Origin: an uncultured Methanobrevibacter sp.
Lineage (GTDB): Archaea > Methanobacteriota > Methanobacteria > Methanobacteriales > Methanobacteriaceae
Length of the DNA stretch: 64,000 nucleotides
Assembly (NCBI GenBank): GCA_900314635.1
Contig: OMVY01000009.1
Location: 50,132-114,131, forward strand
Reading direction: 5' to 3'
How positions within the stretch are numbered: the first letter of the stretch is position 1; every line of letters starts with the position of its first letter. Shown piece after piece: positions 15,809-38,967 of the stretch. The notes below the pieces were generated by a model that saw nothing but the letters and a program-made list of their open reading frames with translations, was not told where the DNA came from and did not search any database. Both the position numbers and the translations under genes were made by a program.

Positions 15809-16251
15809 AGATTAAGCTGGATTTTTTCATTTCTTTTAAATAAACAGTATCTTGGTTTAAAATAGATTATTTTTACTTTAAAAGCTTTGAATAGCTTGTT
15901 TTTAAGATTACAAACATTTTTTCCAATATTTTTTAATATAAAAAGGGCTTTAAAATTCAATTTTATTATCCAAACTGCTTATAAGGGCTTTTTTAGTCTA
16001 TCTGCCACTTCTTATTTGAAATTTGATTTGTTTGATATTCCAATGCCTTATTTTTATTTGAAGTGTAAAAAATATATGATATTTATTTTAAAGTCCTTTA
16101 ATTTGTTTTTAAATCTTTTAAAACATTCTAAGACTGTTTATTTCTAAAAAATAAAGACTAAAAAAGCTTAAACATTTAAATATAATGAATTACATAAATT
16201 TCACTACACACGATAGTTGAATATTAGGTTATTTTCGAAGGAGGTGTAAAT

Positions 16252-18915
16252 ATATCGTTAAAGATAAGATTTACTCTGATAGCCTTGATGTTGATTTTGG
16301 TAATTAACATAGGCGCAATATCAGCGAATGAAATAACTGACATTAATAGCTTAAAGAGCGATATTGAAGACTCTTTAAGTGTTACAGATTACATTGATGA
16401 AGAGACAGATTCATCTGATCAATCATTAGGCGCTGGGGATTCCAGTGCTGATTCCTATGACAGCGGTTCTTCTGATATTGAAGAATCAGATTTGTCTAGT
16501 TCCGACAGTTCTATTGTTGCTGAAGAAGAGGAAGAGGAAGCAGATGTTAGGAATGCAAGTTCCATTTCCGTTTCCAGCAATTCTGTAGTTAGAGGAAACT
16601 CATATGCAATAACCTTGCTTGATTCAAATAATGCAGCAGCATCAGGCAAACTGGTGCAGTTCACATTATCCGGCAAGACTTATAATGCAACAACAGATTC
16701 TAATGGAAAGGCAAGTCTGCCTGTAAGCCTGGCTGCAGGAACTTATCCGCTTGAAATATATTTTGCAGGAGATGATGCTCTGAATGGTTCAACAAGAACC
16801 ATTGACCTTAAAGTCACTGCAAATACTCCAAGCATTACTGTTGGAAGTACTACAGTAATCAGGGGAAAATACTTGTATGTCTATCTAAAGGATAATAATG
16901 GCAAGGCAATGGCAAACCAAAAGGTTACCATTAAAATAAACGGCAAGACTTATGAAAAGACTACAAATTCCAATGGAAGAGCAGCCTTGAAGATTAAATT
17001 AACAGGCAGCAAATATTCCACTAAAGTTTATTTCTACAAGAGCGGAATATATTCAGCCGCCAGCAAGTCTTTCACTCTCACGATTTCAGACAACAAGCCT
17101 AAAATCACTGTGGCAAATGCCACTGTAATAAGAGGCAAATACTTGTATGTCTATTTGAAAGACAAATCAGGCGCTGTAATGGCCAGCAAGAAGGTCACAA
17201 TAAGAATCAACGGCAAAAATTATGTCAAGACCACAAATTCCAATGGAAGAGCAGCCTTGAAGATTAAACTGACAGGCAGCAAGTACGCTGCAAAAGTTTA
17301 CTTCTATAAATCAGGGGTCTACTCATATTCAAGCAAGTCTTTTACTTTGAATATTGCAAACAACAAGCCTTCATTCACTATAGCGAATTCCACTGTAGTC
17401 AAAGGCAATTACCTCTATGTTTATCTAAAGGATAAAGCAGGCTCTGTAATGGCTAATCAAAAAGTTGCTGTCAAATTAAACGGCAAGACTTATGCCATGA
17501 CTACAAATTCAAATGGAAGAATTGCATTGAAGGTTACTTTGGCTGCTAAGAAATACACAACCAATCTTAATTTCTATAAAACTGGTGTATACTCAGCATC
17601 CAGCAAATCATTCACATTGAATGTGGTAAATGACAACAGCAAAAACTCTGTTGCAAATATTATGGCTGCAGCCACCAAGGTGCGCAATTATGTGAATTCA
17701 TATAAAAGATTGCCTGAAACCGTAACTGTTGGTTCATACAAGATTTCCATTGAGGAATTCTCATATCTCATGAGCGAATCCATAGTCGGCCTCAACAAGG
17801 GAAGCATAAGCAGTGTTAAAATTTTGGAAGGCATTCAGGATGTTGAATCCGGCGGAGACTCTATGAACGCCAAGATTTACAAGGAACAGTATGTGGATTT
17901 GGCAAATCGTGCAATGACTTACATCCAGAACAACAAAGTGCCTGCAAGATATGCTGCTGCTTATTCAAGTTCCAATTCAAAAATAGGCAATGCAGGATTT
18001 GACTTGTATATATATTGTTTTGCAAAGATACTGGTATTCTATGATGATAATAAATATCTGCCTAACTACTGCACTTTTGAAAGCAGTGTGTTTGGAAGCA
18101 GTTCAGATAGCAGCGAGTCAGTTCTTTCAAATGTGATAGACAGCAGCAGACTGCGCAATTTCACTATAGCATTAACAGGATTAGACAGCTCAATTCTCTC
18201 AAATATGGCAATCAATCTGACTTTGGATGCTCCGACAGGTTCCGGCAATAAGATAACTAAAAAGACTGTTATTCTTGACTCTGACAATATCTACAGCACA
18301 TCCAAAGACTTGAAACTGCTTAATGACATAAAAACAATACTCGAGTCAAAAGGATACGAGGTCATAGTCAATACTACAATAGGTCCGAACACACACAATA
18401 TGGATGTGCAGAATAGAAAAAACGTATGTGTATTCAGCATATATGGTGGAATAGATGCAGGAATGTTTGTTGATAAAGGTGCTGTCTATTTCCAGAATTA
18501 CTTAAAACGGAATAACAACCAGATTGTCTTAGGTTTCCTGGCTCCTCCGATTACAAGAAATCTTGCTACTGAAACCTGGCTTGAAAGGGCTCACGATGAT
18601 GACTACAGTGCGCCTATATTCACAGGTCTTGCAAATCCAGGGACTTATATAAATACAAATGTAGGTGCGGACTATGTATATGGTTCCACTGCAAGCGAAC
18701 TGGCTTCAAATTTCCTTAATTTTGCAGTAAACGGCTTCAGTGTTGGATTGGATGGAACCATTCCTTCAGCTCAAAAGACTTATAAGCTGACTACAAATGC
18801 AAATGGGCAGGTTACTATTCCAAATCTTGTTGCTGGAGTATACAATATAAGCTACTCTTATATTGATAATTTAGGAAACAGGGTTGTGCAGAACAAGCAG
18901 TTCACTTTAAGTTAA
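16252..18915 (+). CDS. Adhesin-like protein 1: signal peptide, acidic stalk, Ig-like repeats, pseudomurein-binding repeats, unnamed 'RAHDD' domain
   Basis: Three 270-bp Ig-like repeats (matching points 16963, 17233, 17503); PMB-like KRLPETV..., YVDLANRAMTYI and YCFAKILVFY...LPNY. Start proposed at ATA 16252 (GGAGGTG-N5); track start is 16285. Confidence 0.85.
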   Translation: MSLKIRFTLIALMLILVINIGAISANEITDINSLKSDIEDSLSVTDYIDEETDSSDQSLGAGDSSADSYDSGSSDIEESDLSSSDSSIVAEEEEEEADVRNASSISVSSNSVVRGNSYAITLLDSNNAAASGKLVQFTLSGKTYNATTDSNGKASLPVSLAAGTYPLEIYFAGDDALNGSTRTIDLKVTANTPSITVGSTTVIRGKYLYVYLKDNNGKAMANQKVTIKINGKTYEKTTNSNGRAALKIKLTGSKYSTKVYFYKSGIYSAASKSFTLTISDNKPKITVANATVIRGKYLYVYLKDKSGAVMASKKVTIRINGKNYVKTTNSNGRAALKIKLTGSKYAAKVYFYKSGVYSYSSKSFTLNIANNKPSFTIANSTVVKGNYLYVYLKDKAGSVMANQKVAVKLNGKTYAMTTNSNGRIALKVTLAAKKYTTNLNFYKTGVYSASSKSFTLNVVNDNSKNSVANIMAAATKVRNYVNSYKRLPETVTVGSYKISIEEFSYLMSESIVGLNKGSISSVKILEGIQDVESGGDSMNAKIYKEQYVDLANRAMTYIQNNKVPARYAAAYSSSNSKIGNAGFDLYIYCFAKILVFYDDNKYLPNYCTFESSVFGSSSDSSESVLSNVIDSSRLRNFTIALTGLDSSILSNMAINLTLDAPTGSGNKITKKTVILDSDNIYSTSKDLKLLNDIKTILESKGYEVIVNTTIGPNTHNMDVQNRKNVCVFSIYGGIDAGMFVDKGAVYFQNYLKRNNNQIVLGFLAPPITRNLATETWLERAHDDDYSAPIFTGLANPGTYINTNVGADYVYGSTASELASNFLNFAVNGFSVGLDGTIPSAQKTYKLTTNANGQVTIPNLVAGVYNISYSYIDNLGNRVVQNKQFTLS

Positions 18916-18923
18916 ATAAATAG

Positions 18924-18960
18924 ATTATCTTAATTTTTTAAGATAATTCTTTTTTTTATT
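18924..18960 (+). terminator. Hairpin plus T-tract after ALP1
   Basis: ATTATCTTAA-TTTT-TTAAGATAAT followed by T runs. Confidence 0.55.
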
Positions 18961-19320
18961 TTTTTAAAACTTACTATTTTTACATTATTTTATATTTTTT
19001 TATGAAATTTTTTATTTTTTATTAAAAATTTTTATTTATTTTTTAAAACTAATTTTTTATCTATTTGATTATTTTTCATAAAATTTTTATTTATTTTTTT
19101 AAAACTAATTTTTTATCTAATTAATTATTTTTTCATAAAATTTTTATTTTTTCTTAAAAATCTTTATTTTTCTTAAAACTCGCTTATTTTACCTTATTTT
19201 GTCCTAATATCAATCAATTTTAATGTTTTATTGAATAAAAGGGATGCATAGGATAAATCTGCTTTTAACGAATATCACAATAATGATTTTAAAAAATGTT
19301 TGGTCTTGAGAGGTCAAAAA

Positions 19321-19444
19321 CATTATAAGCAGATTTCCAATCTCTGTTTTTAAAAAGCAAAAAGTAAAAAAAGTCTCATTTTGTGCTTATTTTTGAATTT
19401 TAAGCCTTAAAATTCATTAACCTTTATATATGTTGAAAAATAAA
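19321..19444 (+). promoter_or_regulatory. Duplicated upstream/promoter block, copy 1 (ALP2)
   Basis: 124-bp block nearly identical to 22106-22229, containing CATTAACC-TTTATATA (TATA 19423-19430). Confidence 0.8.
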
Positions 19445-19580
19445 ATTGTATATGTAAATATTTTAAAAATCTATAACAATTTAGTTTTTTTTTAAGCTAT
19501 TAGTTATGAAAAAATTTTTTAAATATTTGTTTATTGTAAAATTTTAAATTTTAGTCAATTGTATAAATGGAGGTGTTAAA

Positions 19581-21785
19581 ATTACGAAGAGAATGACAAT
19601 ACTCGTATTGTTATTGGTATTTGCAATATTAAGTATTTCTTCAGTATCGGCGAATGATGTCGAGAATAATCTTGCAATTGATGAAAATAGTTTAACTTCC
19701 AGTGATGAGGTTTCATTGGAGGATTCTTATAATCTGGAATCAGATTCTCAGGATTCTGATATCTTAGAAACTGAAGTTGCTAGTGAGCAATTCAGTGATG
19801 ATGAAATTGATGACGGTGACGGTTCTGGAGATGGAGGTGCAGATTCTCCTGGTGACGGTTCTGGTGATGGAGGTGCAGATTCTTCTATAGATAATCCGGA
19901 TGAGAATACAGAATTAAATAGCACTGATTTGACTGTTGTCGACTCCAATGTGATATATGGCCAGAATCTTGAGGTTGTCTTAAGTTCCAATGACAATTCT
20001 TTAGCCGATCAAAACATAACTTTTGAAATCAATGGCACAAATCATACAGCTCTTACGGATTCAAGTGGGAAAGCAGCTTGTGAAATATCATTGGTGCCAG
20101 GTGCATATGACATAACCGTCTATTATCTTGGAAATGATCAATATGCCCCATCCAGCAAAGCATTCACAATAAATGTCTTGAAAATTACTCCAGTATTTAC
20201 AGTATCAGCTACTGAAGTAATGAAAGGATATTATCTTTATGTTTATCTTAAGGATGCTAAGGGCAATCCTATAAATGGCGTTAATGTAACAATAGACATT
20301 GGAGGCAATAAGTACTCTATCACAACCTCTAATGGAAAAGCAGGCCTTAAAATTAAATTGGATCCAAAAAAATATGCTGTGAAATTGGCTTATGCTGGCG
20401 ATGAGATTCATGCTCCTGCAAGCAAATCATTTAATTTGAATGTGGTGAAAAATCAGCCTTACTTCAAGTATAATTCCAAGATTTCCACACTCAATTATTT
20501 AACAGTATATTTGAAGGACGGCGCCTACAAGCCAATTGCAAACAAGAAGATCACAATCAAGATAGGTAGCACTAAATACACTAGAACTACTGATTCCAAT
20601 GGAAGAGCACGTGTTTATGTTAAGAAGCTCCCAGGAAAGTACAAGGTAAAGCTTTACTATAAAGGAAATGCGATTTACTCAGCTGTTTCAAAATCATATA
20701 CCCTCAAGGTAGTAAAGAAAGCTACAGCATTCACTGTTAAAAACACTACTGTTGTAAAAGGAAAATATCTCTATGTCTACCTTAAGGATGCAAATGGTAA
20801 AGCCCTCAAGAATAAAAAAGTCACTATTCGTCTTAACGGCAGGAAATATGTGAAAACCACTAATTCTAATGGCAGGGTTTCATTAAAAGTCAGCTTAAAA
20901 GCAGGCAGTTATAAAGTAAAATTATACTATTCAGGCAGCAAGTATTACAAGGCAAAAAGCAAAAGCCTTACCATGAAAGTTGTTAAATCAACTTCAGTTT
21001 ACAAGTCTGCAAATGGATGCATATGGCTTTGGAACAGTTTGAAGAATGAAGTGAATTTCAAGACCCTTAAAAACAATGGAATCAAGAATATCTTTATAAG
21101 CTATGTTGCTGTTGAATCCTCTGATTTCGATGCATGGCTGAATGAAGCAAACAGCTATGGCATGAAAGTACATATATGGATGCAGGCGTTCTATGACAAG
21201 AAATGGATCAATCCAATACTAAGCGATGGATCTGTAAATAATACATTATTAAACAAAATCGCTAAGAATGCAGAATCATATGCAAAGATAAAAGGCGTTT
21301 CAGGTGTTCACTTGGATTATATCAGATTCCCTGGTACCGCATATAAATATAAAAACGGTGAAAAAGCTGTTAGCGAATTGGCCAGGAAAGTATCAGAATC
21401 TGTAAAGCAAGTAAATTCAAGTATAGTAGTATCCTGTTCTGTGATGGGTGAAAGTCTCTACAGCAATTCATATTATTACGGACAGAATCTCACCAAGCTA
21501 TCCCAATATGTTGATGTAATTGTTCCTATGCTTTACAAGGGAAATTATGGTCAGAGCAGTTCCTGGATTAAAACTCAGACTGCAAGCTATGTCAAAGCCG
21601 TCGGTTCAAATGCTAAGATATGGGTAGGACTTCAATCCTACAAAAGTGATGATGATTTGACTAAATTGTCCATATCTGCATTAAGCCAAGATGCGGCTAA
21701 TGCAATAAAAGGCGGAGCTAATGGAATTGCCTTATTCAGGTATGGATTGACTAATTTCATTAACATGACCAGAATAATTGCATAA
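19581..21785 (+). CDS. Adhesin-like protein 2: Ig-like repeats plus C-terminal putative glycoside hydrolase TIM barrel (DUF4015/GHL10-like)
   Basis: Signal peptide; acidic region with 36-bp duplication (19815 and 19851); Lys/Tyr-rich Ig-like repeats; GMKVHIWMQAF, GVHLDYIRFPG and DVIVPMLY motifs. Start proposed at ATT 19581; track start is 19593. Confidence 0.85.
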   Translation: MTKRMTILVLLLVFAILSISSVSANDVENNLAIDENSLTSSDEVSLEDSYNLESDSQDSDILETEVASEQFSDDEIDDGDGSGDGGADSPGDGSGDGGADSSIDNPDENTELNSTDLTVVDSNVIYGQNLEVVLSSNDNSLADQNITFEINGTNHTALTDSSGKAACEISLVPGAYDITVYYLGNDQYAPSSKAFTINVLKITPVFTVSATEVMKGYYLYVYLKDAKGNPINGVNVTIDIGGNKYSITTSNGKAGLKIKLDPKKYAVKLAYAGDEIHAPASKSFNLNVVKNQPYFKYNSKISTLNYLTVYLKDGAYKPIANKKITIKIGSTKYTRTTDSNGRARVYVKKLPGKYKVKLYYKGNAIYSAVSKSYTLKVVKKATAFTVKNTTVVKGKYLYVYLKDANGKALKNKKVTIRLNGRKYVKTTNSNGRVSLKVSLKAGSYKVKLYYSGSKYYKAKSKSLTMKVVKSTSVYKSANGCIWLWNSLKNEVNFKTLKNNGIKNIFISYVAVESSDFDAWLNEANSYGMKVHIWMQAFYDKKWINPILSDGSVNNTLLNKIAKNAESYAKIKGVSGVHLDYIRFPGTAYKYKNGEKAVSELARKVSESVKQVNSSIVVSCSVMGESLYSNSYYYGQNLTKLSQYVDVIVPMLYKGNYGQSSSWIKTQTASYVKAVGSNAKIWVGLQSYKSDDDLTKLSISALSQDAANAIKGGANGIALFRYGLTNFINMTRIIA

Positions 21786-21796
21786 AATTTTTTTCA

Positions 21797-21830
21797 AGTA
21801 GCTATTAGCTACTATTTCTTTTTTTATTTT
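21797..21830 (+). terminator. Hairpin plus T-tract after ALP2
   Basis: AGTAGCT-ATT-AGCTACT followed by T runs. Confidence 0.55.
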
Positions 21831-22105
21831 TTTATAATGCTATATTGAATAATTTAATTTTTTTCTTGATCTTTTTATAAATTTTTATTGAACTCTTTGA
21901 TTTTTTCAATATTTTTTCAATGATTTTTTTATTTTTCATTAATTTGCTTATTTTGCTTCAAAAATAGATTATTTTTATTTATTTTTGCTATAAATCATTT
22001 TATTTCATTATTTTATTGAATAAATAAATGATATGGTATAGCTTTATTTTATATGAATGCTTTTTAAATAATATTTAAAAAAGTTGAATATTGATTAATT
22101 TTATA

Positions 22106-22229
22106 CATTATAAACAATTTTCCAATCTTTATTTAAAAAAAGCAAAAAGTTAAAAGAGTCTCATTTTGTGCTTATTTTTTAATTTTAAGCCCTAAACTTC
22201 ATTAACCTTTATATATGTTGAAAAATAAA
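22106..22229 (+). promoter_or_regulatory. Duplicated upstream/promoter block, copy 2 (ALP3)
   Basis: Colinear copy of 19321-19444; TATA at 22208-22215. Confidence 0.8.
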
Positions 22230-22327
22230 TTTAAATATAAGAATATTTTCTAAATTAAAGACTTATTATGATTAACACTTTTAATTTTTTTAAAATATTT
22301 GTCAATTGTATGAATGGAGGTGTTAAG

Positions 22328-24520
22328 ATTAGGAAGAGAATGACAATACTCGTATTGTTGTTGATATTCACAATATTAAGTATTTCTTCGGTATCGGCAA
22401 ATGATGCTGATAATAATATTGCAATTGATGAAAACAATTTTAATTATTCCGCTAATTTGAATTCCTTGGAAAATTCATTAGATTCTCAATCAAGCTCAAA
22501 TGATTGCTATTTTGGACAAAGCAGTGATGGTTCATCAGAACATGCTGATAATGGGGATGGAATGGGTGAGGAATTCTTAGAAACTGATTCTGACAGTGAA
22601 ACCGATGATGGGGATTTGGATCCTTCTTCGGATAATTTAGATAATGATGCTGAATTAAAGCAAAGCCAGTTGACCCTTGTCAATTCCACTATCGAGTATG
22701 GCAAGAACCTGGAACTGATTTTAAGTTCAAATGATGTTGCATTAGCTGGTGAAAATCTAATTTTGGAAATTAACGGCACTAATCATACTCTTATAAGCGA
22801 TTCAACAGGAAAAGCAGTCTATAAGATATCCTTATTGCCTGGAAGTTATGAATTTTTTGTTTATTACCTGGGAAATGATATATATGCTCCTTTTAATAAG
22901 ACATTCACATTGAATGTTTTAAATATTGCTTCAAGCTTTACAGTATCTAGTGTCAAGGTAATGAATGGTTATTATCTCTATGTTTATCTAAAAGATGCAA
23001 ATGGCAATCCAATCAATGGAGAGAATATAACACTTGATATGGGTTCCAGTAAATATACTGCCAAGACTTCCAATGGAAAAGCAGGTTTTAAAATCAAACT
23101 GGATCCTAAGAAATACTCTGCAAAGTTGTCATATGTTGGAAACAGCATTTATTCTCCTTCAAGCAATGCATTTACCTTGAATGTGGTGAAAAATCAACCT
23201 AGCTTTAAATACGGCACAAAGGTTCAGAGACTGAATTACCTGTATGTATATTTAAGGGATGGTGCTGGAAAAGCCATCTCTGGAAAAAAGGTCACTATTA
23301 AAATAGGAAGCAAGAAGTATTCCAAGACTACTAATTCAAAGGGCAGAGTCTCATTGAAAATTTCAAAACCTTGCGGAAAGTATGTCGTCAAATTAAGTTA
23401 TGGCGGAAACAGCATATATTCCAAAGCCTACAAGAAATATACTCTTAAAGTCATTAAAAACAAGGCCTATTTCGAGGCGGGCTCTTCTATTTCCACACTC
23501 AGCTATTTCAAGGCTTATCTTAAGAACAATGCAGGAAAAGCCATTAAAAATAAGAAAGTTACCATTAAAGTAGGGAGCAAAAAATACACTCGCACTACAA
23601 ATTCCAATGGCAGGATAACTTATTATATCAAGGCTCCTGGGACTTACAAGATAAGACTGTATTATGATGGAAACAACTACTATGCCTATACATATAAATA
23701 TGTCAAGCTCAAGGTGTCAAAGAAGGCAACAAAGGTTTATCCAAAAACTAAAACAGTCATTAAAGGAGGCTACTTGAAAGTTTACGTCAAAGATTCCTCA
23801 AACAATGCTCTCAAAGACCAGAAGGTTTCAATCACTGTAAATGGTAAGACCTATGATGAAATCACCAATTCCAAAGGTCTGGCTAGTTTAAAGATTTCCT
23901 TGAAAAAGGGTTCCTATAATGTGACTATCAAATATGCGGGAAATAAGTATTATAAATCATCCAGTAATACTTTTAATATGGAAGTGATTCTAGGTTCAGG
24001 ACTCAAGATTTCTAAAAAGACAATTGTTCTGGATTCAGATCTTATTTACAACACAGCCAGGGATTTGAAGTTGTTGAATGATATGGCATCTCTCCTTAGG
24101 GCTAAAGGCTATAAGGTCATAGTCAATTCAAAAATAGGACCTAACTCACACAATAATGATGTCATGAATTATGAAGATGTGTGTGTATTCAGTATTTATG
24201 GAGGTGTGGATAGCGGAATGTTTGTAGATAAAGCTTCAAACTGGTTCCAATACTATTTAAATCATAATGATAATCAAATAGCATTAGGTTTTCTTTCTCC
24301 ACCTGTAACTAAGGATCTAGCTACTTTGGATTGGCTTGAAAGGGCACATGATGATGATTACAGTCCGAAGAATTTCACTGGTTTGGCAAATCCAGGACTT
24401 TATATTAATGAAGAAGTTGGAGCAAACTATGTTTACGGATCCAATGCTGCCCAGTTGGTAAATAATTTCCTAAATTATGCTGTAAATGGTAAAAGCATAG
24501 GCATAAGCGGAGCTAGTTAA
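22328..24520 (+). CDS. Adhesin-like protein 3: N-terminus paralogous to ALP2, C-terminal 'RAHDD' domain paralogous to ALP1
   Basis: Shares MTILVLLL...SISSVSAND and YYLYVYLKDA.GNPING with ALP2; shares the 159-aa domain (24014-24490) with ALP1. Start proposed at ATT 22328; track start is 22268. Confidence 0.85.
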   Translation: MRKRMTILVLLLIFTILSISSVSANDADNNIAIDENNFNYSANLNSLENSLDSQSSSNDCYFGQSSDGSSEHADNGDGMGEEFLETDSDSETDDGDLDPSSDNLDNDAELKQSQLTLVNSTIEYGKNLELILSSNDVALAGENLILEINGTNHTLISDSTGKAVYKISLLPGSYEFFVYYLGNDIYAPFNKTFTLNVLNIASSFTVSSVKVMNGYYLYVYLKDANGNPINGENITLDMGSSKYTAKTSNGKAGFKIKLDPKKYSAKLSYVGNSIYSPSSNAFTLNVVKNQPSFKYGTKVQRLNYLYVYLRDGAGKAISGKKVTIKIGSKKYSKTTNSKGRVSLKISKPCGKYVVKLSYGGNSIYSKAYKKYTLKVIKNKAYFEAGSSISTLSYFKAYLKNNAGKAIKNKKVTIKVGSKKYTRTTNSNGRITYYIKAPGTYKIRLYYDGNNYYAYTYKYVKLKVSKKATKVYPKTKTVIKGGYLKVYVKDSSNNALKDQKVSITVNGKTYDEITNSKGLASLKISLKKGSYNVTIKYAGNKYYKSSSNTFNMEVILGSGLKISKKTIVLDSDLIYNTARDLKLLNDMASLLRAKGYKVIVNSKIGPNSHNNDVMNYEDVCVFSIYGGVDSGMFVDKASNWFQYYLNHNDNQIALGFLSPPVTKDLATLDWLERAHDDDYSPKNFTGLANPGLYINEEVGANYVYGSNAAQLVNNFLNYAVNGKSIGISGAS

Positions 24521-35478: not shown

Positions 35479-36777
35479 ATGAAAGCGGCAGTTATTGGAT
35501 TGGGTGTAGAAGGAAAAAAGGCTTTAAACTCTCTTTTGAAATATGGATGGGATGTTTATGCCAGCGACTTGAATGTCAATATCAATATTGATGACCTGCC
35601 TATTTCACTTGGAAGTGCAGATGTTTCTCCTTCAGAGTCCAGAATAAGTTTTGCAAATGACAATCTTTCCATCGATCTTGGCTTTAACAAAAGGGAGGAA
35701 ATCGAATCCTGCGATGCAATTGCTTTAAGTCCGAGCATATGGGGCTCTGCTGTTAGCGAGGAATTCAAAAAAACAGGCAAGCTATTATGTGATGTTAAAA
35801 ACAAGCACCGCTCTATTTTTACTATTGGGGTTACAGGAACTAATGGAAAGACAACCACCACTTCCATGATAAGAGAGATATTGGAAAATGCAGGCTTGAA
35901 TGTTTTAACAGGAGGCAATGGAGGCGGAGGTTTCGATGGATATTACGATCTCATGCTTGATGCAAATGAAAACGACTATGATGTGCTTCTTATTGAAGTG
36001 TGTGACATGACTGTTGGTTTCTGTGATTACTGCTTCGACTTTGATATTGTGGCCCTTACAAATATGGGCAATGACCATATGGATGTCCATGGATCCATGG
36101 AGGGATACAGAGACTCTTTAAAGGATTTCTTTAAATGTAAGACAGTATTTCTCAATGACAACCAGATTTACAAGGATGAATTCGAAGATGTTGCAGAGCA
36201 TATGGTTGAATGCAGTCCGTCAGATTATGATTTAAAGCTTTTCGGCATATTCAACAAGAGAAATGCAGGCATTGCTGAAAATATCTGCAGGCATGTTGGC
36301 GAAAATTTCTTTAAAATCGATGAATCTATTATCCAAAGCACATTGGAAGATTTCACTCCTGTCAAAGGCCGTCTTGAAGTATTAAAATTGAATGATTGCA
36401 ATATCTACATAGGAAAAACAGACAATTCTGATGCATTTAAGACAGTTTTAAATGAAGTTGATTTTAAAACATTGTTTATTGGAACTCCAAGGCATGATGA
36501 AAGCCACAGATTTGAAATCCTTGATGAAGTAGTCAAATCAAAAGCCGAAGTTGTTGTTTTATTCCCAGGTCTTGAAGATACTTTAGACCAAGCGGTTTAC
36601 AGATTGCATGGTCTTGATTACTCAGGACGCATAGAACTTGCTAATAATCTTGATGAGATAATAGGATACGTGGCTGAATTTTCACATGAGCCTAATTTGT
36701 TTATTGGCGGAAATGGCCAGGAAAACATAATTAAAATAAGAGATAGGCTAGAGGAAATATGTAAAAACTGCAATTAA
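35479..36777 (+). CDS. Mur ligase family protein (MurD-like; pseudomurein peptide ligase)
   Basis: Rossmann-like AVIGLGVEG, P-loop GVTGTNGKTTT, LTNMGNDHMDVH and GRLEV motifs. Confidence 0.88.
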   Translation: MKAAVIGLGVEGKKALNSLLKYGWDVYASDLNVNINIDDLPISLGSADVSPSESRISFANDNLSIDLGFNKREEIESCDAIALSPSIWGSAVSEEFKKTGKLLCDVKNKHRSIFTIGVTGTNGKTTTTSMIREILENAGLNVLTGGNGGGGFDGYYDLMLDANENDYDVLLIEVCDMTVGFCDYCFDFDIVALTNMGNDHMDVHGSMEGYRDSLKDFFKCKTVFLNDNQIYKDEFEDVAEHMVECSPSDYDLKLFGIFNKRNAGIAENICRHVGENFFKIDESIIQSTLEDFTPVKGRLEVLKLNDCNIYIGKTDNSDAFKTVLNEVDFKTLFIGTPRHDESHRFEILDEVVKSKAEVVVLFPGLEDTLDQAVYRLHGLDYSGRIELANNLDEIIGYVAEFSHEPNLFIGGNGQENIIKIRDRLEEICKNCN

Positions 36778-36896
36778 ATAATCTATTAAATTACATAGGA
36801 AAATATTAAAAATGCAATTATATTAAAAATAATCAAATATCTTATCTGCGGATTATTTGATTAGTCATCATTATAAAAAAATAAATTTCAATCTAT

Positions 36897-36975
36897 AAAA
36901 TAATATTCAATCCATAAAATAATATTCAATTCAGAAAAATAATATTCATAAAATAATAATATTCAATTCAGAAAA
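36897..36975. repeat. Degenerate tandem repeat of AAAATAATATTCAAT (about 4 copies)
   Basis: Copies near 36897, 36916, 36936 and 36954, directly upstream of the VanW-like gene. Confidence 0.7.
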
Positions 36976-37006
36976 ATAAATAAATACGGTAAAGGAAGTG
37001 TTTTAG

Positions 37007-38251
37007 ATTAGTTCAAGAAGTTTAAGAGAAAGAAAATCATTTAAAATATTTATTGCATTGCTTGTAATAATTATAATTCTCATCCCTGTTACCCAGTCTA
37101 ACAACAACAGCGTTTCCTATGATGATATTTCAAAAATATCAAAATTTGATAACGGATCTACTGTTTATGCTGGAGATCAGGTAATAGATAAGAATAATGT
37201 TAATAAGTATCCTACTGTTTCAAATCTGGGATATTTGTTCGGTCAAATTGGCTCAGGGGATTTAATAACCTCATTTTTCTCAGTTGCCACTGGAGCTGTT
37301 CCTATTCCAGCAACAGATATAGTAGTTGGAAATGTGACAGATGGTGGAGTTGTTGAAGACTTTGATGGTCCGGGCCATATTGAAATTACAAATAATACGA
37401 TAAAGGTCATAGCTCCGGACGATTTGATTTATGGTTATCTTACTCCATATTATCAGGCAGTAAAGACTTCAACTGGTGTTGACATAGTAAATAATAAAAC
37501 AAATGAAACTGTCAGGCACATCAATGGAGATGACATCAATAATGATACATTGGATAGTGACAGAGTAAACACAGACCAGTTCCTCTATTGGTACAATAGA
37601 GCCGCTGAGGGTTCAACATACACAATGGAATACGGTCTTGCAGGTTTCTCAGACAATCGTTCCATGATTACTCCTGAGGAGCTAAAAGAGCAATTCCCAG
37701 ATGCTTACAATTATGCAATACATTATCCTAATGACTGTGCGGTTATAATATATCAAAACAACATTGAAGAAAAGCTTGTAAGCAGCACTTACACTTATCT
37801 TGATTCCCACCCTCAATATAATGATGCAAACAGGGAATATAATGCCAAGCAATTCGTAACTGCATGGAACGGCACTGTCATTCCTTCAGATGCTTATGGC
37901 TGTGGTAGGGAGGATGTTGGATTCAGCGCAGTTCCAGAATCAGAAGCAGAGTCCGGAATGGCAACACATGGAGTATGCCCTCCTGCAAGATCATTAAGGG
38001 AAGCTGTAATGGCTTTAGGCTTTTCATTACCTATAGGTATGGATAGCGGTCGTGATGCTGTGTTATACGGATACAGTCCTTCTACTGGAATAAAAATCCA
38101 CAATACACTTGATTACCCAATGAAAATCATCATGTGGACAGAAGGTTCAGGTGCAGGAATGGAGATTCATACTGAAATTTATGAATTAATTCCAAAAAGC
38201 GCGGTAAACAGCACAAATTCAACTAACTCAACTAGCAATACAACTTATTAA
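37007..38251 (+). CDS. Membrane-anchored secreted protein with C-terminal VanW-like domain (putative Cys transpeptidase)
   Basis: N-terminal TM anchor; WNGTVIP, HGVCPP..L..AVMALG, GRDA and HNTLDYPMKI align with VanW NGTVILP / GGVCQ..LY.A.L.AG / GRDA / NNTDYPI. Start proposed at ATT 37007, immediately after an in-frame TAG; track start is 37058. Confidence 0.72.
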   Translation: MSSRSLRERKSFKIFIALLVIIIILIPVTQSNNNSVSYDDISKISKFDNGSTVYAGDQVIDKNNVNKYPTVSNLGYLFGQIGSGDLITSFFSVATGAVPIPATDIVVGNVTDGGVVEDFDGPGHIEITNNTIKVIAPDDLIYGYLTPYYQAVKTSTGVDIVNNKTNETVRHINGDDINNDTLDSDRVNTDQFLYWYNRAAEGSTYTMEYGLAGFSDNRSMITPEELKEQFPDAYNYAIHYPNDCAVIIYQNNIEEKLVSSTYTYLDSHPQYNDANREYNAKQFVTAWNGTVIPSDAYGCGREDVGFSAVPESEAESGMATHGVCPPARSLREAVMALGFSLPIGMDSGRDAVLYGYSPSTGIKIHNTLDYPMKIIMWTEGSGAGMEIHTEIYELIPKSAVNSTNSTNSTSNTTY

Positions 38252-38310: not shown

Positions 38311-38967
38311 ATGTTAAAAGTTTCAGCAATAATTACTGCGGCAGGAAAAAACTCCAGAATGAGAAAAGATCAAATGGAGAGAAACATTCCGCTGCAGAAT
38401 AAATTAACACTTCCTTTTAATTCAAGCACAATAATAGAAACTACAATCGCAAATGTCTTGAATACTGACAATATCGATGAATGTATTGTGGTTCTTGGAC
38501 ATTTCAGTGATGAAATATTGCCTTTAATTAATAAAATTGATGATTCTAGACTTAAAATCATTGAAAATGACCCAGTTGATGTGGGTCTTTCTGTTTCTTT
38601 ATTGAATGGATTATCCTGTATAAATTCAGATATTGCCCTTTGTGTTACAGGCGACCAGCCTACAGTTAGCACTAAAACATTCAATTCAATTCTTGATTGC
38701 ATTTTAAAGTTTGAAAATCCCAAAAACACTATTTCTATTTTAAGACGCTTGAAAACTGGAAAGCTTGATACCGCTGAAGGTTTGGGAATGCCTTTTGCTG
38801 CAAGCAGGCTGGAATTGATTGATTATTTGAAGGGCAAGGATGACAATCTGAATCCTATCTTGAGAGAAATGTTTTCTGACGGCTTTGATTTTTATGGAAT
38901 CGAAGAAGATAATCCTCTTGAACTGATTAATATCAATACCTATTCTGAATATGAAAGCATTCTATAA
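38311..38967 (+). CDS. MobA/NTP_transf_3-like nucleotidyltransferase
   Basis: IITAAGKNSRM, VVLGH, GDQP and NINTYSEY motifs. Confidence 0.85.
   Translation: MLKVSAIITAAGKNSRMRKDQMERNIPLQNKLTLPFNSSTIIETTIANVLNTDNIDECIVVLGHFSDEILPLINKIDDSRLKIIENDPVDVGLSVSLLNGLSCINSDIALCVTGDQPTVSTKTFNSILDCILKFENPKNTISILRRLKTGKLDTAEGLGMPFAASRLELIDYLKGKDDNLNPILREMFSDGFDFYGIEEDNPLELININTYSEYESIL

Follow-up and report, generated by a model that had tools for sequence, protein, structure and literature searches.

Probable ATA and ATT start codons behind extended Shine-Dalgarno sequences in adhesin-like and cell-wall genes of Methanobrevibacter

In a 64,000-nucleotide stretch of a Methanobrevibacter genome, referred to here as the window, three genes for adhesin-like proteins (ALP1, ALP2 and ALP3) and the pseudomurein cell-wall gene PmurA probably begin at ATA or ATT instead of ATG, GTG or TTG. 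Comparative evidence leads us to consider it likely that ALP1 and PmurA, and very probably ALP2 and ALP3, start at such codons, each placed behind a strong and exactly spaced Shine-Dalgarno (SD) sequence. With similar confidence, we take this start type to occur throughout the genus Methanobrevibacter, with a concentration in Sec-exported adhesin-like proteins and membrane-anchored envelope proteins. Throughout, ATH denotes ATT, ATA or ATC, and canonical denotes ATG, GTG or TTG. The window corresponds to contig C10:50132-114131 of the studied genome, a 2.29 Mb draft of 34% G+C in 36 contigs, and the genes and start signals described below within the window lie on its plus strand. Non-AUG starts at the four genes had been proposed in a first-pass annotation of the window, which named orthologue conservation and a genome-wide count as ways to check the idea; its positions for the SDs and the ATA and ATT codons are all correct, and the n-regions that these starts add (SLKIRF, TKR, RKR and SSRSLRERK) are present as it described.

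ATA and ATT codons at four envelope genes

ALP1 (16252–18915; 887 codons plus stop) encodes an adhesin-like protein with immunoglobulin (Ig)-like repeats and a pseudomurein-binding repeat (PMBR), matching Pfam Big_1, Big_3_5, MG4 and PMBR. Its 8-nt SD, AGGAGGTG, at 16239–16246 is followed 5 nt later by ATA at 16252–16254, and reading from this codon gives a predicted signal peptide, (M)SLKIRFTLIALMLILVINIGAISA with cleavage before NE, encoded at 16252–16326. From an in-frame TAG at 16225 to a TTG at 16285 there is no ATG, GTG or TTG in frame, and both this TTG and the ATG at 16288, at which all homologues in public gene calls begin (875 aa, MLILVIN...), fall inside the hydrophobic region (h-region) of the signal peptide. 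A genus-wide search for the pattern GGAGGTG-N5-ATH recovered the 5′ ends of ALP1 in seven other species. Across the 8 species the SD and the string GGAGGTG-TAAAT-ATA-TCG, including the ATA, are invariant; codons 3 (L/K/I) and 6 (R/K/D/H) vary, and the sequence 5′ of the SD diverges. The orthologues in two relatives, G014 and G010, hold no in-frame ATG, GTG or TTG ahead of the cleavage site. That of G014, located at about position 1,483,830 on the minus strand, reads (M)SIKIDFTLIIALLCLILVISVGAVSA with cleavage before TE and runs for 41 codons without an in-frame ATG, GTG or TTG, so that, with no canonical codon in its signal peptide, the secreted product could start only at ATA. A strain-level variant of ALP1 (an 81%-identical homologue) is identical in the start region. 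Full-length orthologues of ALP1–3 were not found in 30 relatives, in which matches were confined to C-terminal parts or to repeats. On these comparisons, ATA 16252 is very likely the genuine start of ALP1.

The fourth gene (37007–38251; 414 codons plus stop) had been labelled VanW-like, a label that we replace: the protein has no Pfam VanW match, and indeed no Pfam family at E<=0.001, the only hit being a chance match to OPT at E=0.056. It is a member of the PmurA (Mfer335) family, scoring 453.8 bits against NCBIfam NF053640 (cut-off 400). PmurA lies in pseudomurein gene cluster 1, flanked upstream by the pseudomurein peptide ligase pMurD2 (35479–36777; NCBIfam NF053647, 600.5 bits, cut-off 550) and downstream by the nucleotidyl-transferase-like protein PmurB of the Mfer334 family (38311–38967; NCBIfam NF053639, 323 bits, cut-off 260). 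Mfer335 has been described as a cluster 1 member that is limited to pseudomurein-containing methanogens and carries a membrane domain near its N-terminus (PMC10117817). The ATT at 37007–37009 directly follows an in-frame TAG (37004–37006), 6 nt past an SD-like GGAAGTG at 36994–37000, and would give the protein an N-terminal transmembrane (TM) anchor, (M)SSRSLRERKSFKIFIALLVIIIILIPV, that is probably not removed by cleavage. Public calls begin at TTG 37058, the first canonical codon after the ATT, which is within this TM helix.

In 18 other genomes of the genus, the alignment of PmurA begins at residue 1. Either GGAAGTG or GGGAGTG precedes the gene in 17 of 19 species, and GGAAGTG-TAAGT-ATT is identical in 12 of the other genomes; the spacing between SD and ATT is 6 nt in the studied genome and 5 nt in 12 other species. 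The start column holds ATT in 13 genomes, ATG in G009 and G010, TTG in G017 and GTG in G001, and a nearby in-frame ATG is used instead in G014 and G018. In other genera, the start ATG overlaps the end of the upstream gene. We are highly confident from this alignment that ATT 37007 is the genuine PmurA start, and a conserved ATT start thereby appears on a core wall-biosynthesis gene, not only on variable adhesins.

Two further features were seen at this locus. The NF053640 model begins at residue 17 of the PmurA query, corresponding to the TTG 37058 picked by gene callers, and the model may rest on sequences from this genus with truncated N-termini. Further, about five tandem copies of a 19–20-bp AT-rich unit (AAAATAATATTCAATTCAGA) fill the pMurD2–PmurA intergenic region at 36875–36979, ending just 5′ of the PmurA SD; the units may have a promoter or regulatory role, or may form a variable-number repeat.

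ALP2 (19581–21785; 734 codons plus stop) and ALP3 (22328–24520; 730 codons plus stop) also encode adhesin-like proteins and share Pfam Big_3_5, Big_1 and MG4 with ALP1; ALP2 shows Ig-like repeats and additionally carries a DUF4015 glycosyl-hydrolase-like domain. Both genes have the SD GGAGGTG (19569–19575 and 22316–22322), followed after 5 nt by ATT (19581–19583 and 22328–22330), from which the signal peptides would read (M)TKRMTILVLLLVFAILSISSVSA and (M)RKRMTILVLLLIFTILSISSVSA, each with cleavage before ND. Public gene calls start ALP2 at the ATG at 19593–19595, 17 nt past the SD. ALP3 has three in-frame ATGs, one at 22340 that lies 17 nt past the SD, one at 22310 that overlaps the SD, and one at 22268 that has no SD; the public call takes the last of these (750 aa), adding 24 spurious residues. 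We consider it likely that both genes start at ATT, a reading that is not forced because the ATG four codons downstream keeps the hydrophobic core. No ALP2 or ALP3 orthologues with the same 5′ end were found in the genus; the orthologue conservation proposed in the first-pass annotation is borne out for the ALP1 ATA (8 of 8 species) and the PmurA ATT (13 genomes), and not for this pair.

The 5′ ends of ALP2 and ALP3 have in common an 18-nt cassette, (G/A)AATGGAGGTGTTA(A/G)(A/G)AT(T/A), at 19563–19583 and 22310–22330. The same cassette also occurs on an unrelated family of small cytoplasmic proteins (ETNNIRYFYRNIVKSGKKYRIKYNNKDYGEF), conserved in 9 other species, and the likeness extends far beyond the SD core. 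Loci with GGAGGTG-TTAGG-ATA were considered as orthologues of ALP2 and ALP3 and rejected, as they belong to this unrelated small cytoplasmic protein. An ATG abutting the SD was likewise discarded as a general signal for upstream open reading frames: AT stands before GGAGGTG at ~18% of all sites, only a little more than expected, and ATGGAGGTG is untypical of canonical starts.

Genome-wide enrichment and gene class

The seven canonical starts listed for comparison in the first-pass annotation (3762, 5421, 9751, 14666, 35139, 40399 and 48644) all lie 5 nt after GGTG, and the same geometry prevails across the genome, where ATG peaks at GGTG+5 (273 sites, versus 12 at +4 and 86 at +6; open reading frames (ORFs) of >=100 codons). 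For the corresponding analysis of ATH, we collected GGTG sites at the 5′ end of ORFs of >=150 codons that lacked a canonical start at +3 to +9 and had no upstream in-frame canonical codon. ATH occupies offset 5 in 14 of 29 such sites (48%), and the same-frame offsets 2, 8 and 11 in 3/30, 3/32 and 2/29 (8/91 in total, ~9%; Fisher p=1.2e-5), an enrichment well beyond chance. At AGGTG sites, ATH is found in 8 of 12 cases at offset 5, where the ORFs span 199–1019 codons, and in none of 21 at offsets 4, 6 and 7, where the ORFs are short. Other codons one step from ATG are not enriched at offset 5 (ACG, AAG and CTG are absent, AGG occurs once), showing that the excess is specific to the third codon position, which fits near-cognate initiation and not random loss or decay of start codons.

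The usual SD in the studied genome is only aGGTGat. Upstream of the first canonical start, an SD of >=5 nt stands before 19 of 1867 ATH codons versus 33 of 11844 other codons (3.7-fold, p=2.8e-5). SDs of >=7 nt at spacing 5 are followed by ATH in 5 cases, all signal-peptide-like, by a canonical codon in 41 cases, 6 of them signal-peptide-like, and by no other codon (p=3e-4). Reading from ATH yields textbook signal peptides with a basic n-region; in ALP1, PmurA and at least 7 other genes, the canonical codon that comes next is already within the h-region or TM helix. The 3′ end of the 16S rRNA (GGATCACCTCC) was not found in the 36 contigs, the draft lacking rRNA operons and some tRNAs, and the anti-SD was derived from motif statistics and PMC10783764.

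To place ALP1–3 among their relatives, an ALP-type set was defined by BLAST, comprising 29 ORFs in the studied genome, 27 of them with a signal peptide. Going by the best SD support, 8 of these genes have an unambiguous ATH start (ALP1–3, C17:118352, C19:247925, C28:35687, C36:13064 and C36:6211), 3 are ambiguous, with ATH followed by ATG one or two codons later, 11 start at ATG and 5 at TTG. ATH is thus used by 8–11 of the 27 signal-peptide ALPs versus ~1% of other genes, a ~12-fold enrichment (p=1.5e-5), and non-ATG starts make up 13–16 of the 27 versus ~15% elsewhere. TTG is also over-represented, accounting for 5 of 16 canonical-start ALPs versus 34 of 345 canonical starts genome-wide (p=0.02), and most of these TTG starts have long SDs too. 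The first-pass annotation had suggested that non-AUG initiation is systematic in secreted wall proteins; the enrichment supports this in part, as ATG or TTG still opens 16 of the 27 ALPs and ATH also occurs as a start in some cytoplasmic genes.

Further families in the genus show the same arrangement. Another signal-peptide family carries GGGAGGTG-TATAA-ATA in 4 species, an ALP subfamily carries GAGGTG-N5-ATT-TCN in 4 species, and G014 encodes a second signal-peptide protein behind GGAGGTG-N5-ATA. The small cytoplasmic protein with GGAGGTG-TTAGG-ATA occurs in 9 species, in one of which an in-frame TGA two codons 5′ of the SD removes the canonical alternatives. In the studied genome, ATH candidates outside the exported proteins include a prephenate dehydratase, a zinc-ribbon protein and a few others. 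In the prephenate dehydratase gene (C14:7266-8084, outside the window) ATT is the sole in-frame start, GGTGATAAA-ATT-AAA-CCC-GTA-GCA, and precedes the conserved LGPxGTF motif; the GTG within its SD is in another frame. In sixteen congeners the gene instead has GGAG-N6-ATG, placed two codons farther 5′. As its ATT is confined to the one species and may have arisen recently, we set this gene aside as an independent housekeeping example. Separately, GGAGGTG-ATAAA-ATA opens a 27-codon hydrophobic ORF (ISLLEEGALYVFIGILLILIGLFFKIL, then stop) at G033:C6:1006-1125, and the same 15-mer is present at G034:C135 and G005:C161; its product may be a small membrane peptide initiated at ATA.

Possible alternatives: downstream starts and neutral drift

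The ATH codons could be incidental parts of a 5′ leader, with translation starting at the next canonical codon (ATG 16288 or TTG 16285 in ALP1, ATG 19593 in ALP2, ATG 22340 in ALP3 and TTG 37058 in PmurA). Public gene callers do pick canonical codons, and the case is best made for ALP2 and ALP3, in which the in-frame ATG four codons after ATT leaves the hydrophobic core whole and the resulting signal peptide, now uncharged, still usable. Each of these two genes also has an out-of-frame, 9-codon upstream ORF (uORF), located at 19567–19596 in ALP2 (ATG GAG GTG ... GAA TGA; MEVLKLRRE) and, in the same layout, at 22314–22343 in ALP3 (MEVLRLGRE), whose TGA overlaps the downstream ATG as ATGA. Such overlaps are known to support termination-reinitiation, so the uORFs are a possible canonical route that competes with the ATT start. 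This route is weakened by the finding that no SD lies 5′ of either uORF ATG, and by the ALP2 paralogues C17:118352 and C19:247925, which carry ATC-TCT-AGA-AAA at this position and lack a Met further on. In all four genes the sole SD is 17–51 nt away from the downstream codons, none of which has another SD before it, and starting at them would halve the h-region of ALP1 or the TM helix of PmurA. Moreover, a downstream start is at odds with the ALP1 orthologues of G014 and G010, whose signal peptides are devoid of canonical codons, and with the PmurA orthologues in which ATG, GTG or TTG occupies the very column of the ATT, and it leaves the genome-wide ATH excess at +5 unexplained. Overall, we regard initiation at the downstream codons as very unlikely. 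The idea that the genes are pseudogenes, or products of assembly error, that have lost their start codon is less probable again, to the point of being negligible: a change from ATG to ATH takes a single third-position substitution and the draft is in 36 contigs, but the ORFs are intact over 400–1000 codons, the same ATH recurs in independent assemblies and metagenomes (clusters of 159–383 members) in up to 13 species, and the other one-step neighbours of ATG show no comparable excess.

A more serious possibility, which we hold to be somewhat unlikely, is that the ATH starts are real but near-neutral and no adaptive throttle, having arisen by AT-biased mutation (ATG to ATA, ATT or ATC) in weakly expressed, fast-evolving and often duplicated surface genes, where a strong SD makes them tolerable. 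The base composition of the genome, the rapid divergence of the ALPs as a multigene family without full-length orthologues, and the restriction of the prephenate dehydratase ATT to the studied species, its relatives having ATG, would all agree with this, and the TTG excess in ALPs is what relaxed start selection would be expected to produce. That ATH and TTG are both in excess in ALPs would be compatible with selection for low or tunable output of large envelope proteins, and also with a relaxation of selection on start quality. However, the ATA of ALP1 (8 species) and the ATT of PmurA (13 species) each stay the same codon, with no exchange among ATA, ATT and ATC, and their SDs and spacers are fixed; in the same species, the spacer of pheA, a gene started at ATG, is free to vary. 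PmurA, furthermore, is a core cell-wall gene and not dispensable, and ATH starts are paired with exceptionally long SDs. Because the same codon, SD and spacer have been retained over the long term, constraint on these starts is favoured.

Several points weigh against ATH initiation, or against the way in which we support it. GGAGGTG precedes 4 of 14 ATH envelope genes versus 9 of 389 canonical starts, but ATH candidates were selected by an SD requirement, which makes the link between ATH and long SDs partly circular. Signal peptides were called by a crude hydrophobicity rule, and paralogy limits the independence of the ALP cases, which nonetheless include at least 8 unrelated signal-peptide sequences. 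Strain variants of ALP2 and ALP3 are identical in the start region and show conservation that cannot separate ATT from the downstream ATG, and a regulatory element, in place of constraint on the start codon, could be what keeps the 5′ cassette invariant from species to species. In vitro, aIF1 of Sulfolobus discriminates against non-canonical starts, as cited in a passage of PMC6237735. Literature searches returned no ribosome profiling (Ribo-seq) or N-terminal proteomics for Methanobrevibacter.

Proposed mechanism, precedents and implications

If ATH is the start, the usual initiator Met-tRNA (anticodon CAU) would decode it despite a mismatch at the third position. The initiator tRNA encoded in the genome is a standard CAU species; it has A1:U72, and its anticodon stem contains three G:C pairs. 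No tRNA with an ATH-matching initiator anticodon was present among the 36 tRNAs found by ARAGORN (two with CAU), an absence that is not absolute, and a special initiator tRNA was dropped from consideration, only the standard CAU initiator having been found. The SD duplex would place the 30S subunit such that GGTG ends 5 nt 5′ of the codon, in the geometry of the genome's ATG starts, and the unusually long SD (GAGGTG to AGGAGGTG), together with the fixed 5-nt spacer, would offset the weak codon. Because the signal peptide is cleaved, the identity of the start codon would matter only through initiation rate and expression. A lower or conditional rate of initiation may be the consequence, and the combination of weak start and strong SD may have been selected to limit or tune the output of large envelope proteins, acting as a translational throttle by analogy with bacterial precedents.

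Known examples of such starts are largely bacterial. In E. coli, infC, encoding initiation factor 3 (IF3), and pcnB use AUU starts behind an SD; the start codon limits expression and was missed by gene finders. The AUU start of pcnB is among the cases cited in a passage of PMC13009471. The Methanobrevibacter ATH genes resemble infC and pcnB in having a near-cognate start behind an SD and differ in setting: the bacterial pair are single regulatory genes proofread by IF3, with infC autoregulated, whereas here initiation is archaeal (aIF1/aIF1A/aIF2), a whole exported class is involved and there is no evident autoregulation. The closest parallel to GGAGGTG-N5-ATH is found in Staphylococcus aureus, where cvfC1 (AUU), ccpN (AUA) and infC (AUA) have extended conserved SDs and are expressed at ~10% of the AUG level (PMC13009471), codon and extended SD being conserved across the genus. 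Those genes encode small cytoplasmic regulators and were proved by Ribo-Ret and reporters, whereas ours encode surface proteins and are supported by comparative analysis. Among archaea, our literature searches found one inferred case of an ATH start, the Asgard tubulin gene atubA, for which a rare ATT start has been inferred (PMC13394414). There too, the annotated N-terminus was too short and was restored by an upstream ATT at a plausible distance from a ribosome-binding site; atubA, in contrast, is a single gene, described without statistics, class association or analysis of orthologue conservation. For Methanobrevibacter and methanogens, the searches yielded no specific report of ATT or ATA starts. 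Initiation at near-cognate codons with the help of a strong SD is a known mechanism, encountered here across a gene class in an archaeal genus.

A stronger proposal is that weak starts (AUA, AUU, AUC and UUG), extended SDs and the invariant 5-nt spacer make up a dedicated translational class for envelope genes, comprising the ALPs and PmurA. We put this forward as speculative and doubtful. If true, the output of the envelope class would be set jointly by the stringency of start selection, for example through aIF1 activity or growth state, and the class would be an archaeal, class-wide counterpart of the IF3-dependent control of infC, as opposed to a scatter of tolerated weak starts.

There are practical consequences for annotation. 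Prodigal-type and reference pipelines accept only ATG, GTG and TTG. The routine mis-annotation suspected at the outset is evident in the window, where public calls truncate or misplace all four N-termini, and it extends to an ALP on contig C36 that is inconsistently begun at two different internal codons. For a large share of the surface proteins in this genus, gene finders would halve the signal peptide or extend the N-terminus spuriously. ALP1–3 fit the adhesin-like proteins described for Methanobrevibacter: those of M. ruminantium M1 are likewise large secreted proteins with Ig-like repeats, there with weak Big_1 homology (PMC2812497), and ALP1 additionally has the PMBR. Signal peptides of Methanobrevibacter ALPs have been predicted from annotated ORFs, and surface inventories made with SignalP feed the choice of vaccine and host-interaction targets (PMC2812497). 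Because SignalP was run on ORFs from canonical-only start calls, surface-protein inventories of rumen and gut methanogens are probably incomplete or mis-delimited. The genome papers PMC2812497, PMC3746419 and PMC4987999 make no mention of non-canonical starts.

For the biology of these archaea, the comparative evidence suggests that archaeal initiation (aIF1/aIF1A/aIF2) accepts AUH when it is paired with a strong, exactly spaced SD, and that ATH starts have been kept over long evolutionary times, even on a core cell-wall gene. The bias of these starts towards the envelope offers a concrete hypothesis on translational control of the methanogen cell surface.

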